From: an uncultured Anaerolineae bacterium
GTDB taxonomy: Bacteria > Chloroflexota > Anaerolineae > VGOG01
DNA: 64,000 nt
NCBI GenBank assembly: GCA_964390805.1
Contig: CAYMKL010000019.1
Coordinates: 9,352-73,351 of the forward strand
Reading direction: 5' to 3'
A program made the position numbers and the translations under genes. Below the pieces are notes generated by a model. That model was not told where the DNA came from and searched no databases. It saw only the letters and a list, made by a program, of their open reading frames with translations. How positions within the stretch are numbered: the stretch's first letter is position 1; every line of letters starts with the position of its first letter. This document shows, piece by piece, positions 54,603 through 63,993 of the stretch.

Positions 54603-54631
54603 TTGACATATGAGCTTTTTGCCAGTATAAT
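54603..54631 (+). promoter_or_regulatory. Perfect-consensus sigma70 promoter (TTGACA - 17 nt - TATAAT) about 285 nt upstream of the SIR2-STAND gene
   Basis: cTTGACAtatgagctttttgccagTATAATag read directly. Confidence 0.55.
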
Positions 54632-54917
54632 AGCTTAGCGCGACAGGAATGATCCATCCATTTACCCAGAAATAGAGAAGCGTGATGAACATTCGCGAAG
54701 ACCCTTTCGAAGCTCCTAAGGTGTACTGCGAAAGTCAGCAGAGTCAACTTGGTTGGCTTTTGTGGCTTTCTAACGGGCACCGCTGTTCGCCTAGTGCAGG
54801 CGATGGCTGGTGCCCGATTGTCTTTGGCGAGTTAGCGAGGGGTTAGGCTCGATTAGATAAGCAAGAGGAACTTCGAGTATCCTGACGACCTTGCTATTGT
54901 CCCAGAGAGGATATATT

Positions 54918-57032
54918 ATGGCTCTCAGAGATGAAGTAAAGCAACTGATAACCGATGAATTGCTGCCCCGGATTCGTGCGGATCGCTGTATTCTCTTTGC
55001 AGGGGCTGGATTGTCCTACGAGGCTGGTTTGCCAGGTGCGAGCGATCTGGCAAAGAGACTATGGCAAGCGTTGCCGGAACAGGAGAGACCAGACCTATAT
55101 ACTCTGAGCGAGGTGGCCGAGATATACCTGAAGCACCACACCAAACAGGAACTCGTGGATTTCGTAAAGGAGACCTTGCAGCCCATTAGAGGGCAGGTTT
55201 TGGATACCACTACCTTTCGCCTGATCGCTCACATCGCACACCTCAATAGAATCATCATTACCACCAATTGGGATACCTTGTTGGAGGAAGCCATTCAAGG
55301 GGTAACGAAAGTACCTCCAGCGGTTGTCGTGAGGGATATTGACATGGGGAAAGTAGCTGGTGCCCAACACATCATCTACAAAATCCACGGCTCCTGGGAT
55401 GCACCTGGAACTTTCGTGCTAACCGAGAGGGACTATCGGCTCAGATACATGGAGCTGTTTGATCCCAAGTCGCTGATTATGGCTCAGGTACGCACTCTTG
55501 TTGCCGGCAGAGTTATCATCTATGTGGGGTATAGTCTGCGGGACGAGTATTTTGACGAACTGCTGCGGCAAATCAGATTTGCTTTAACCGATCCGCGAAC
55601 AGGAGAGTTCTTAGGCCGGACAAGTTACTTAGTCGTGCCTGAAGAGCCCGAAGAGGAAGCGAGAAGGCGCTTACGGGGGCTACGCATCAAGTGGGTCAAT
55701 GCTTCAGCGAGAGACTTCTTCCAGTTCACCTTCACCGAAACCTCCGAATTTGTCAACCGGCAGAAAGAGCTTGGGATAATACGATCACTAAAAGAACCTT
55801 ATACCGAGATATGCGGCGGTGCGGGCATTGGTAAAACGAGGCTCTTACGTGAATTGGCCTATGAGTATAAAAAAGATAACTGGTTCAATGTGTTCTACAT
55901 AGATTTGAGAAAGGGGACTTCCTTTGATCTTATCAAGGAGCAAAGCAAAGTAGGAGATATGAATGAGCTATCTCAAAGGGGTGGTCTGTTCATTGCAATG
56001 GATTCCCTCGATAGAGCAGGGGAATTTGACGATGTGAAAGAATTCATTCTGAGGGTGCACAGGCCGGAGATCTCTACTCAGCGCATCGTCTGGGCAACCA
56101 GATTTAGTATCCTTGATCAATTGTCGCCACCTGTGAAATTCCGCGCTTCTACGTATCCTCTGAGCCCTATGCTTACATCTTACGTGGCGGAGATGGTCAA
56201 AAACCATGTAGAGCTCATCGGAGGTGAGGTATGGACTCAGGCCAGATATGAGAGACTGGCCAATGAGATCATCACACTGACCGGGACCGGGCATCCGGGA
56301 CTGGTCGTGGAGGTGCTTCGCATTCTGGGCAAGGCAACGCCCCCCTTTGAGGTGGCTTATTTACAGGCAAAGCGTCCGGAAATTCTTTACGCCCTCAGGA
56401 GCAACCTTCGAAGAGAGGTTTTTGGAGAGGAGAATCCGGAAATAGAGGAGGAGTTGAAGCCAGTTACCAGGCTGATGGAGAACATTTTCTGTGCGGTGCG
56501 TGGAGTGACCCAAGGTATGATTGCCGGACTGTTCAAGGATGGTAAAGTGGCGACAGTGGATTTCCAAGATGCCGAGGGCATTTTCAAGGCATTATTGAAC
56601 ACTCACTTGTTGGACAGAGGGGCCTATCCGCTTCACAGCATTGATGCAACCGTTCGATACGTCCTGGCTTTATGCCTGCAAGAAGATAATCGCCAGCGAT
56701 TTGAAGAGATAAATGATTGGTGCATTGGCTACTTTTGGGAGGCAGTACAAAGTAGCAGGGAAGATGTGCAGCGCGCCTATGTCCGGGAGTGGCTCTTCCA
56801 TCACATGACGCGACTAGATGCGGAGACGAGCGCACAAGCAAGATTGGACTTGCTGAAGGATGATTTAAGGCAGATTACGCTACGAAGCGCAATGGGAGAG
56901 AGAGCAAAGGAGACGCTCATCAGAGAGACGACTGGTGATGAGGAACTAAAGAGTTTACTAGTGAAGCACCTGGAAGTCGAACTACTCTCGCTATTACTCC
57001 AGGAGCTTACCAAGCTTACGGTACAGGGCTAG
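54918..57032 (+). CDS. SIR2-like (SIR2_2 family) N-terminal domain fused to a STAND/AAA-type P-loop NTPase
   Basis: SIR2_2 motifs CILFAGAGLSYEAGLPGASDL, IIITTNWDTLLEEA, IYKIHGSWDAPGTFVLTERDY, VIIYVGYSLRDEYF; Walker A ICGGAGIGKTRLL, Walker B GLFIAMDSLDRAGE. Confidence 0.8.
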   Translation: MALRDEVKQLITDELLPRIRADRCILFAGAGLSYEAGLPGASDLAKRLWQALPEQERPDLYTLSEVAEIYLKHHTKQELVDFVKETLQPIRGQVLDTTTFRLIAHIAHLNRIIITTNWDTLLEEAIQGVTKVPPAVVVRDIDMGKVAGAQHIIYKIHGSWDAPGTFVLTERDYRLRYMELFDPKSLIMAQVRTLVAGRVIIYVGYSLRDEYFDELLRQIRFALTDPRTGEFLGRTSYLVVPEEPEEEARRRLRGLRIKWVNASARDFFQFTFTETSEFVNRQKELGIIRSLKEPYTEICGGAGIGKTRLLRELAYEYKKDNWFNVFYIDLRKGTSFDLIKEQSKVGDMNELSQRGGLFIAMDSLDRAGEFDDVKEFILRVHRPEISTQRIVWATRFSILDQLSPPVKFRASTYPLSPMLTSYVAEMVKNHVELIGGEVWTQARYERLANEIITLTGTGHPGLVVEVLRILGKATPPFEVAYLQAKRPEILYALRSNLRREVFGEENPEIEEELKPVTRLMENIFCAVRGVTQGMIAGLFKDGKVATVDFQDAEGIFKALLNTHLLDRGAYPLHSIDATVRYVLALCLQEDNRQRFEEINDWCIGYFWEAVQSSREDVQRAYVREWLFHHMTRLDAETSAQARLDLLKDDLRQITLRSAMGERAKETLIRETTGDEELKSLLVKHLEVELLSLLLQELTKLTVQG

Positions 57033-63037: not shown

Positions 63038-63050
63038 GAGGGAGCCAAAA

Positions 63051-63993
63051 ATGCCTAAAGATGATCACAAGAAGCTTGGCAAGACTCTACTGGAGAGCTT
63101 GGAAGTCAAACCCGGCAACCTAGGAGAAGCCCTCTTTGAGCTATATGAGATTGCCGGAGATTGCCTCCGGAACGATCAATGTGACGAAGCCTTTCAATGT
63201 TGTAGGACTGCTCTGAACCTTTGCGATGGGCTGAAGTCAGAAACCGAGTTGAATAGCGGCCTAGACCCCTCTTACGCACGAGCCATCTTCTATGCATACA
63301 TGGGCACGAGTTATTTGAATCAAGGAAAGCTAAAACATGCACTGGACTGTTATGACAAGAGCAGGAGCCGGCTGCATGGTAATCTTTGGCATGATCGTTG
63401 GAACGAAGGTCTATTACGGTGCACAATAGGCAAGTTATATCAATGGACTGGTAAGCTCGAGGATGCCTTTCTTGCCTTCCAACAGAGTCTCTTTTGCTTG
63501 CAATCCGTGACCAGTGAGAACAAAGATCCAAGTGATCTCATTGTGAAAGCCCAGGCGGAATTAAAAGAAACGTGCCGACTACTTCGAGACTCATTGAAGA
63601 ACAAGGGCAAGCCGCGGGGGGCCACCCGAGTGAAACATCCTGACGTGCACTCAGCCGAAATCACTAGAATCCCTCTTGTTGCAAAGATCGCAGCAGGCTC
63701 TCCTATTCTGGCAGAAGAAAACATCGAGGACTACCTGTTTCTAGACAAGAACTACGCCAAAGATGCTACCTTCGCCTTGCAAGTACAAGGGGTGAGCTTA
63801 ATCAACGCGGGCATTCACAATAATGATGTTGTGCTCATCAGGGAACAACCCATTGCAAACAATGGAGACATAGTGGCAGTAGTATTGACCGACATAGATA
63901 CTGAAGCTACCCTGAAGCGCTTCTATGAAGAAGAGACACACATACACCGATTATGCTTAATTCCACAGAGCGGTTTCAGATTTGCCATCTGAT
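63051..63993 (+). CDS. TPR-like N-terminal domain fused to LexA-like S24 autopeptidase domain (no HTH)
   Basis: C-terminal region collinear with the LexA CTD: IPLVAKIAAG|SPILAEENIE (Ala-Gly cleavage site), QVQGVSLINAGIHNNDVVLI (Ser nucleophile), TLKRF (Lys); N-terminus helical/TPR-like; ATG 63051 follows the upstream stop. Confidence 0.7.

Follow-up and report, generated by a model that had tools for sequence, protein, structure and literature searches.

A candidate conflict system of paired STAND NTPases and a radical-SAM/SPASM enzyme in an uncultured Anaerolineae bacterium

A 64,000-nt stretch of DNA from an uncultured Anaerolineae bacterium (GenBank assembly GCA_964390805.1, contig CAYMKL010000019.1, positions 9,352 to 73,351 of the forward strand; this whole stretch is called the window) carries at its right end five genes, G1–G5, which probably encode a horizontally acquired conflict system of the STAND/NLR-like type, acting by abortive infection or programmed cell death and built from a three-protein core and a back-end module. 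On the gene content of related loci, the conserved core is a triad of a first STAND NTPase (STAND-A), a second STAND NTPase with a TPR array (STAND-B-TPR) and a radical-SAM/SPASM enzyme (rSAM-SPASM). A bolder form of this reading, offered tentatively and with less than even confidence, takes the two STAND proteins as an obligate sensor/executor pair with the rSAM-SPASM enzyme as an integral third subunit. They would together make up an unrecognised and fairly widespread immune or death module of filamentous bacteria, in which radical chemistry would serve in activation or killing, and one sub-clade of which would be tied to the membrane and to DNA damage by flotillin-like and LexA-like proteins.

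In the following, WIN denotes the operon copy in the window, L-numbers the compared loci and P-numbers the compared proteins. The features of WIN are:

54603 to 54631, plus strand: sigma-70 consensus promoter TTGACA-17-TATAAT, perfect 12/12 match
54638 to 54917, plus strand: leader of about 280 nt, conserved, structured, non-coding
54918 to 57032, plus strand: G1, 704 aa, predicted SIR2 NADase-type domain (about residues 1–270) and STAND NTPase A
57044 to 60022, plus strand: G2, 992 aa, STAND NTPase B and C-terminal TPR array
60026 to 61150, plus strand: G3, 374 aa, radical-SAM/SPASM enzyme, starting 3 nt past the G2 stop
61304 to 63037, plus strand: G4, 577 aa, polytopic membrane protein, SPFH/Band_7, flotillin-like
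63051 to 63992, plus strand: G5, 313 aa, TPR and LexA-like S24 autopeptidase without helix-turn-helix (HTH), a 3'-truncated copy
63946 to 64000, no strand assigned: unrelated sequence, probably the end of a multi-copy element, with no alignment to L003, L093 or L095

The open reading frame (ORF) calls place G1–G5 consecutively on the plus strand over 54918–63992, with intergenic gaps of 11, 3, 153 and 13 nt (G1/G2, G2/G3, G3/G4 and G4/G5, respectively), and the G1 ATG at 54918 is preceded by the Shine-Dalgarno sequence GAGAGGA. A preliminary description of this DNA had proposed an island of five co-directional genes behind a perfect consensus promoter; both ORFs and promoter were found as described, and the genes form one operon-like unit. 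The promoter at 54603–54631 is the sole perfect consensus in the window (0.01 expected by shuffling), and a perfect copy also lies upstream of the L004 system. All domain assignments of that description were upheld by hidden Markov model (HMM) searches against Pfam, namely SIR2_2 with STAND (G1; STAND matches weak), a second STAND with TPR (G2; NTPase part below cut-offs), rSAM with SPASM (G3), SPFH (G4) and TPR with S24 (G5). The low-GC segment in which it had placed the operon is real (about 50%, down from about 62%), but the drop begins near 44.3 kb and not at 54.6 kb.

The triad was followed through 25 loci, those having enough upstream sequence to be evaluated. In 21 of these a STAND-TPR gene (900–1390 aa) stands immediately upstream of the rSAM orthologue or one gene away, usually with the gene of a shorter STAND NTPase in front of it. 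The genes had been proposed to form one island, and they are not scattered in the closest relatives: the gene order recurs at 67–90% identity, between differing flanks, in L003 (77% identity; G1–G5 in order, followed by a sixth gene) and in L004 (78% identity; G1–G4). The flanks of L003 are entirely different from those of WIN (Lon, enolase, PIN/Phd pair), and on these differing flanks together with the low GC, given as evidence of mobility, the operon is judged to be horizontally acquired. Carriage by phages or prophages was considered and set aside, as IMG/VR viral contigs hold no orthologue (best match 25% identity).

The SIR2-STAND fusion, taken by the preliminary description as the defining part, is present in WIN, but across the compared loci it is one exchangeable head on the conserved triad:

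SIR2 head on STAND-A: WIN, L003, L004, L007, L105
TIR head on STAND-A: L015, L081
EAD1 head on STAND-A: L023; EAD7 head: L026
STAND-A without head: L010, L014, L016, L024, L103
Separate CHAT effector gene: L010, L020
Separate PNP-EAD9-caspase protein: L019
Extra SIR2 gene: L007 (SIR2, SIR2-STAND, STAND-TPR, rSAM)
SIR2-ORC-like and PglZ-like proteins: L093

The order in L010 is CHAT, STAND, STAND-TPR and rSAM, and one N-terminal domain is common there to a 129-aa protein, the CHAT protein and STAND-A, which corresponds to the coupling principle of effector-associated domains (EADs) of Kaur et al. (2020). Two of the loci contain proteins of about 500 aa that adjoin the STAND genes and end in an OmpR/PhoB-type winged helix (Trans_reg_C; L014 2127–3686 and L019 3490–4995); a role as transcriptional output or regulator is possible. 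L020 has a GNAT acetyltransferase gene (9249–9962) between STAND-TPR and rSAM.

G1 matches Pfam SIR2_2 (3e-23) and, weakly, several STAND families (ATPase_2, nSTAND3/5, AAA_16). The best solved relatives of its SIR2 part are the KomC NADase (7e-12) and ThsA (1e-9), DSR2 matching too, and the PADLOC matches (ThsA 3e-19 over residues 8–228; also Dsr, LmuA and others) are confined to the SIR2 part. Invariant in the family alignment are GAGxS (G29/G31/S33), T116-N117-x-D119 (TTNWD), G158 and the Walker A motif GGAGIGK306T (G300..G305-K306). His157 (K-I-H-G) is retained in five of six members including WIN, and is replaced by Gln in P0005. These residues point to a catalytically intact SIR2 NADase-type domain carried on a P-loop STAND NTPase. 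G1 has no C-terminal sensor repeats, and it is rare, with four full-length relatives among 5.8 billion clusters.

G2 has the complementary architecture: it bears no effector domain, its C-terminal part of about 480 aa is an array of TPRs (TPR_12/TPR_1), and it is presumed to be the sensor. Its NTPase part bears the Walker A motif GGAGIGK44T (K44) and matches AAA_16, NB-ARC and NACHT in Pfam, every one under its cut-off; in PADLOC the NTPase is unmatched, and generic TPR matches fall in the repeats only. Detectable paralogy of the two STAND NTPases was rejected, their likeness being confined to the P-loop region.

The third member of the triad, G3, matches Radical_SAM (7e-16) and SPASM (8e-10). 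The preliminary description had called it translationally coupled, in agreement with its start 3 nt after the G2 stop. All of 20 aligned homologues share, without variation, the cluster motif CxxxCxxC (C29/C33/C36), the GGE motif and seven SPASM cysteines, and the enzyme is predicted to be catalytically intact. In PADLOC it meets the pVip profile (7e-12) by the generic rSAM core only (residues 24–174). The nearest NCBIfam families, AhbD, GeoRSP, NirJ2, MftC and PqqE, are all matched far under their cut-offs (best 25 of 51). By sequence, the G3 family profile is closest, among solved structures, to PqqE, SkfB, BlsE, SuiB, anSME and CteB. The AlphaFold model (pLDDT 73, pTM 0.76) has SuiB, SkfB, BlsE, PqqE, anSME and CteB as its best PDB matches, MoaA and viperin ranking behind. 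G3 most likely acts on a protein or peptide, because SPASM enzymes that modify peptides or proteins make up most of these nearest solved relatives, by sequence and modelled fold; BlsE, a nucleoside decarboxylase, is also high among them. Orthologues of G3 amount to hundreds of clusters, 45–85% identical and mostly from Chloroflexi metagenome-assembled genomes (MAGs), and an exhaustive search of 1.84 billion representatives gave 137 representatives of the family at E<=1e-30.

A natural fusion supports a direct coupling of NTPase and rSAM. In P0258 (881 aa) a STAND NTPase, which ends at about residue 530, is continued by an rSAM-SPASM part (536–863) that is 48% identical to G3, and the protein is encoded identically in two independent assemblies (L162 335–2980, L163 224–2869). 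It is neighboured by metabolic genes, with no other STAND or effector nearby, and is possibly a minimal version of the system. That the rSAM is the sole enzyme in P0258 suggests that it serves as an output and is more than an accessory.

Downstream of the triad, WIN carries the back-end module. The preliminary description had G4 as an SPFH membrane protein, which agrees with a Band_7 match above cut-off (4e-8), hydrophobic N-terminal segments seen in the sequence and a long Glu/Ala-rich C-terminal region. Its orthologues are 58–85% identical and always lie directly 3' of the rSAM gene. G5 matches Peptidase_S24 (2e-19) and TPR in Pfam, and LexA in NCBIfam over its C-terminal part only (2e-25). 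PADLOC has zero matches for either protein. The description of G5 as a LexA-like S24 protein free of a DNA-binding domain holds, PF01726 being absent and the N-terminal 200 residues consisting of TPRs; the cleavage motif KIA-A215-G216-SP and the residues Ser249 (G-V-S249-L) and Lys289 (T-L-K289-R-F) are present and conserved in orthologues.

The WIN copy of G5 is, on the other hand, not intact. Its orthologues, with MBM3154916.1 of L003 as an intact example, have 354–356 aa; WIN follows them to nt 63945 and then continues with 15 unrelated codons and a stop. It thereby lacks the last 57 or so residues of the S24 fold, covering positions 1–89 of the 116-position Pfam profile, which the orthologues cover completely. 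In Logan the same strain is represented by two independent assemblies, and each ends at 63975, 30 nt past the 63945 junction. A multi-copy element, perhaps an insertion sequence (IS), has apparently inserted in G5, because the assemblies stop as they would at a repeat edge in a k=31 graph. As G5 is truncated, this arm of the system is probably dead in the present genome.

A sixth, conserved gene (373–404 aa) follows the S24 gene in L003 and L093–L096 and the SPFH gene in L101 (L003 19293–20414; L093/L095 11184–11267; L101 3040–4254). Its product starts with MFARRE[LF]DWLNHLFQEREYDLIYLDPLV and has zero matches in Pfam, PADLOC and PDB. All four contigs of L093–L096, which come from one study, break at the identical base, 84 nt into gene 6, a common end that hints at strain-level variation or repeats inside the gene.

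SPFH followed by TPR-S24 stands directly after the rSAM gene in six variants (WIN; L003, which equals L098–L100; L093; L095; L102/L103; L104/L105), a recurrence that likewise speaks against scattering of the genes. L102/L103 carry two SPFH genes, as do L013/L107, in which a TPR protein aligns with G5 over its length and has lost the S24 serine motif. The module is formed of accessories of one sub-clade and is not universal. Its identities to WIN follow a mosaic. In L093/L095 they are 85%/75% for SPFH and 75%/71% for TPR-S24, with only 51% for rSAM and 25% for STAND-B. In L103/L105, STAND-B (68%) and rSAM (81%) are close to WIN, STAND-A is different, and TPR-S24 reaches only 27–33%. On this identity matrix the back-end module is judged to have been recombined onto divergent triads. 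The S24 clade, with its PLVAKIAAG site (64–72% identity), also occurs behind a single N-terminal transmembrane (TM) helix in proteins of about 210 aa (P0140–P0143; L097 187–819) and as the C-terminal end of a fusion with an nSTAND1 NTPase (P0139, 519 aa). Its next relatives, 42–57% identical, are genuine LexA C-terminal domains.

These patterns could also mean that the genes belong to two neighbouring systems that work independently, the triad being one and SPFH, TPR-S24 and gene 6 forming a separate membrane stress or defence module. Such an arrangement, which we think rather unlikely, would accord with the absence of SPFH and S24 from most triads (L007, L010, L014–L026, L081), with SPFH lacking S24 in L004 and L101, with the G3–G4 spacer of about 150 nt, with mosaic identities as the separate histories of two blocks, and with the presence of the S24 clade elsewhere, TM-anchored or fused to an NTPase. 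Against it, wherever upstream sequence is available the module directly follows a G3-type rSAM gene and shares its strand; in two of the six variants the rSAM identity is only 51%. Scanning metagenomes with an SPFH profile gave no free-standing SPFH/TPR-S24 copies, functional dependence would more readily account for a module that has joined divergent triads repeatedly, and the P0139 fusion links the S24 clade to STAND biology. A functional link of back-end and triad is thus argued, though unproven, because the module has been repeatedly recombined and yet kept the same position. The G3–G4 spacer of WIN (61151–61303) has counterparts of 147–150 nt in L003, L004 and L102, and of about 70 nt in L093 and L095.

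If G1–G5 are read as one conflict system, the following course of events may be proposed. Binding of a trigger by the TPR array of G2 would drive NTP-dependent oligomerisation of G2, and the oligomer would template the assembly of the executor G1, as in sensor/helper NLR pairs. The SIR2 domains of G1, once clustered, would hydrolyse NAD+, and the infected cell of the filament would arrest or die; NAD+ depletion as the output is plausible. G3, within the complex, would either license or activate the switch by protein modification or act as a second, constant effector, the latter option being favoured because a natural STAND-rSAM fusion occurs with no other effector. G4, G5 and gene 6 would be a membrane-associated regulatory add-on with G4 as the membrane scaffold. 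Self-cleavage of G5 at Ala-Gly on RecA* or another co-protease would separate TPR from S24 and change the state of the system; sensing of RecA* or DNA damage by the S24 domain is likewise plausible. In plants, sensor/helper NLR pairs consist of a recognition NLR and a second NLR with executioner function. The division of labour proposed here would be analogous, with homology limited to the STAND fold and the pairing itself a conjecture.

The leader between promoter and G1 is alignable with L003, L004 and L105, with indels of 1, 2 and 4 nt. It also precedes the first gene in these loci (in L105 its first 127 nt) and perhaps in L007. It folds with a minimum free energy of -102 kcal/mol (z = -3.4). 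For the long hairpin at 54774–54816 the alignment fold includes a compensatory change, G-C to A-U, in the L003 sequence, and a stem of 54877–54883 with 54908–54914 overlaps part of the G1 Shine-Dalgarno sequence. An Rfam search of the leader gave zero matches. The region is considered non-coding because the frame of its 53-aa Cys/Trp-rich ORF (54685–54846) is broken by the 1-, 2- and 4-nt indels in L003 and L004 although the DNA is conserved; this ORF was therefore rejected as a precursor of a ribosomally synthesised and post-translationally modified peptide (RiPP). The leader may act as a regulatory RNA in cis, holding back translation of the toxic SIR2 gene, and the combination of a consensus promoter with a leader covering part of the Shine-Dalgarno sequence suggests strong transcription under translational restraint of the toxic G1.

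The rejected ORF bears on a further explanation, in which the operon would be a RiPP or natural-product cluster, the rSAM-SPASM enzyme maturing a peptide, the TPRs serving as a scaffold (as in HaaT/FxsT) and the STAND proteins acting as AfsR/SARP-like regulators. The TPR region of G2 is weakly like HaaT (1e-9), a TPR protein of cyclophane RiPPs, and AfsR (1e-8) in NCBIfam, and G3 resembles the peptide maturases PqqE, SkfB and SuiB. There is also a precedent in the FxSxx-COOH "peptide-processing" module, which ties rSAM-SPASM to a TIR-AP-ATPase-TPR protein (Kaur et al., 2020; PMC7159879). The NCBIfam matches are, however, far under their cut-offs (37 bits vs 1125, 114 vs 500). The five matches that G2 has in all do not include fxsT, and for G3 the best 25 of 51 families do not include FxsB. 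Compared with the FxSxx-COOH system, a conserved small ORF or FxSxx precursor and a zincin metallopeptidase are missing. With no conserved precursor peptide, with the sole small ORF frame-broken in relatives, and with an operon that encodes neither RRE/PqqD nor a leader peptidase nor an exporter, a biosynthetic cluster is highly improbable, all the more as NAD-degrading, TIR, CHAT and caspase heads would be senseless for biosynthesis.

The distribution of the family raises the question of what the system responds to. Hosts of the rSAM orthologues, which we take to be mostly filamentous, include Anaerolineae, Chloroflexaceae and Ca. Amarolinea, and also Desulfonema, Ca. Electrothrix, Cytophagia and Pirellulales MAGs. 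STAND-TPR/rSAM loci are mostly from filamentous Chloroflexi, with Electrothrix and a Cytophagia MAG in addition; the loci of Desulfonema and Pirellulales have the rSAM orthologue alone, the STAND-TPR neighbour being absent or not evaluable there. A developmental, kin-discrimination or stress-induced death switch of filamentous bacteria, set off by endogenous cues (DNA damage, redox/Fe-S via the rSAM, membrane stress via SPFH), would suit mostly filamentous or multicellular hosts (Anaerolineae, Chloroflexaceae, Ca. Amarolinea, Desulfonema, Ca. Electrothrix). LexA-like domains and flotillin-like proteins are classically found in stress responses, OmpR-type winged-helix output domains occur in L014 and L019, no orthologue was seen in viral contigs, and PADLOC found no known defence neighbours in the window. 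The SIR2, TIR, CHAT, caspase and EAD heads, the low GC, the varied flanks, the fast swapping of effectors and the extreme rarity of every variant are nevertheless hallmarks of conflict systems under pressure to diversify, and such grammar was read as anti-invader by Kaur et al. (2020; PMC7159879). The death switch is accordingly held to be distinctly unlikely, and it is in any case compatible with an anti-phage function.

The conflict system proposed here was compared with those described. The preliminary description knew of no system with this combination of genes, and none was found in the PADLOC models or in the searchable full text of the open-access literature. The two-STAND and rSAM triad and the flotillin-like/TPR-S24 module were likewise not found by text search of Kaur et al. 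(2020), nor in its 2021 sequel or a 2026 survey of bacterial STAND receptors. The PADLOC run that the preliminary description had called for matched the SIR2 part and the generic rSAM core, but no system model fits. Three features appear to be undescribed: the division into a sensor and an executor STAND, the obligate partnership with the rSAM enzyme, and the flotillin/LexA-like module. The class as such is known: NTPase-centred conflict systems with EADs, enriched in multicellular bacteria, were delineated by Kaur et al. (2020; PMC7159879), and the present system has the NTPase core, the swappable effectors and, in relatives, EAD1, EAD7 and EAD9 (the WIN SIR2 is fused directly). Because it falls within this class, it is regarded as a variant and not as a category of its own. 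The MoxR-vWA ternary and GTPase-centric systems differ, as no MoxR, vWA or GTPase domain is encoded in the operons examined.

Among STAND systems, Avs/AVAST (Avs5) shares the STAND switch, with the Walker A lysine present in both G1 (K306) and G2 (K44), the SIR2 N-terminal effector and the C-terminal repeat sensor. In Avs/AVAST, however, effector, NTPase and sensor are in a single polypeptide, whereas here effector with NTPase (G1) and NTPase with sensor (G2) are separate, and the Avs HMMs hardly respond (PADLOC Avs4 E=0.005 over 130 residues of G1; none for G2). A precedent for a STAND protein with an rSAM accessory is KpAvs2-Avap1-Avap2, in whose operon the rSAM Avap1 is required against some phages, its role being unexplained (Bechon et al., 2024; PMC11564622). 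Unlike there, Avap2 (DUF6375, PF19902) is absent from every operon protein examined, and the rSAM here has SPASM, is near-obligate (21/25 loci) and can fuse to the NTPase. With KomC, ThsA and DSR1/2, G1 shares a SIR2 domain keeping the catalytic Asn, Asp and His, but there is no SLOG, no KomB partner and no DSR-type C-terminal sensor, a STAND module being the presumed activator. The likeness to Thoeris stops at the ThsA-like SIR2 part, with SLOG and a gene for the TIR-domain protein ThsB missing. Prokaryotic viperins (pVip), rSAM enzymes that lack SPASM, bind NTP in a pocket and make ddh-nucleotides, are set apart by the full SPASM of G3 and by its fold neighbours SuiB, SkfB, BlsE, PqqE and anSME, which come ahead of viperin.

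For the back-end proteins, G5 has the Ala-Gly site and the Ser/Lys dyad of LexA, UmuD and CI S24 domains; the complete fold is found in orthologues and not in WIN G5, and in place of the winged-helix HTH stand TPRs or, in sister proteins, a TM helix or STAND NTPase. G4 resembles SPFH/flotillin/HflK-C proteins in its Band_7 domain, in the long helical region, rich in Glu and Ala, behind that domain, and in its membrane anchor, but differs in a polytopic N-terminal domain of about 190 aa, in having no NfeD/FtsH partner and in being encoded only in these operons.

Low-GC sequence extends upstream of the operon, and its genes were ruled out as part of the system. Those at 44.3–54.4 kb are mostly on the minus strand (one plus-strand putative lipoprotein is the exception). 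Encoded on the minus strand at 44345–53146 are a histidine kinase (1637 aa, seven GAF domains), two small REC proteins, a protein that combines HD-CE with REC, and a DDAH/arginine-deiminase-like enzyme. L003 lacks this two-component cluster, which is placed outside the system because its minus-strand genes are unrelated and do not travel with the system elsewhere. Just 5' of the promoter (54481–54567) lies a 28-codon remnant like the C-terminus of a membrane permease (VAVLAIAIVVATLDYVSARVREKIVSET and a stop). The same remnant stands upstream of the L004 system, and the two copies therefore share an insertion context.

Several points weigh against the reading of G1–G5 as a single conflict system with a paired STAND core. 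The rSAM orthologue lacks a STAND neighbour in four of the 25 loci, from whose contexts no common partner emerged. The pairing of G1 and G2 is inferred solely from complementary architectures and co-conservation, and the AlphaFold model of G1, built from five sequences, was too poor (pLDDT 56, pTM 0.32) and was not used. For the rSAM enzyme the operons contain neither a precursor-peptide gene nor RRE/PqqD as a sign of its substrate, and a conserved C-terminal tail of STAND-TPR, considered as the substrate, does not exist. The back-end may be functionally separable, since most triad loci lack SPFH and S24. The WIN copy may be decaying, with G5 truncated and gene 6 unseen in the window, and outside the SIR2 and generic rSAM regions no PADLOC system model is matched.

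STAND/NLR-like proteins are central to bacterial, plant and animal immunity, and the characterised bacterial ones are essentially single-chain sensor-effectors. A conserved split into sensor-STAND and effector-STAND would, if true, provide a tractable bacterial model of paired NLRs. The tight and sometimes fused link of STAND with rSAM/SPASM bears on the question raised by Avap1, that of the role of rSAM enzymes in STAND systems, and new kinds of regulatory input would, if their link to the system is true, be represented by the TPR protein with its LexA-like domain and by the flotillin-like protein. The family as a whole offers a natural set of swapped heads (SIR2, TIR, CHAT, caspase, EADs) on one chassis.

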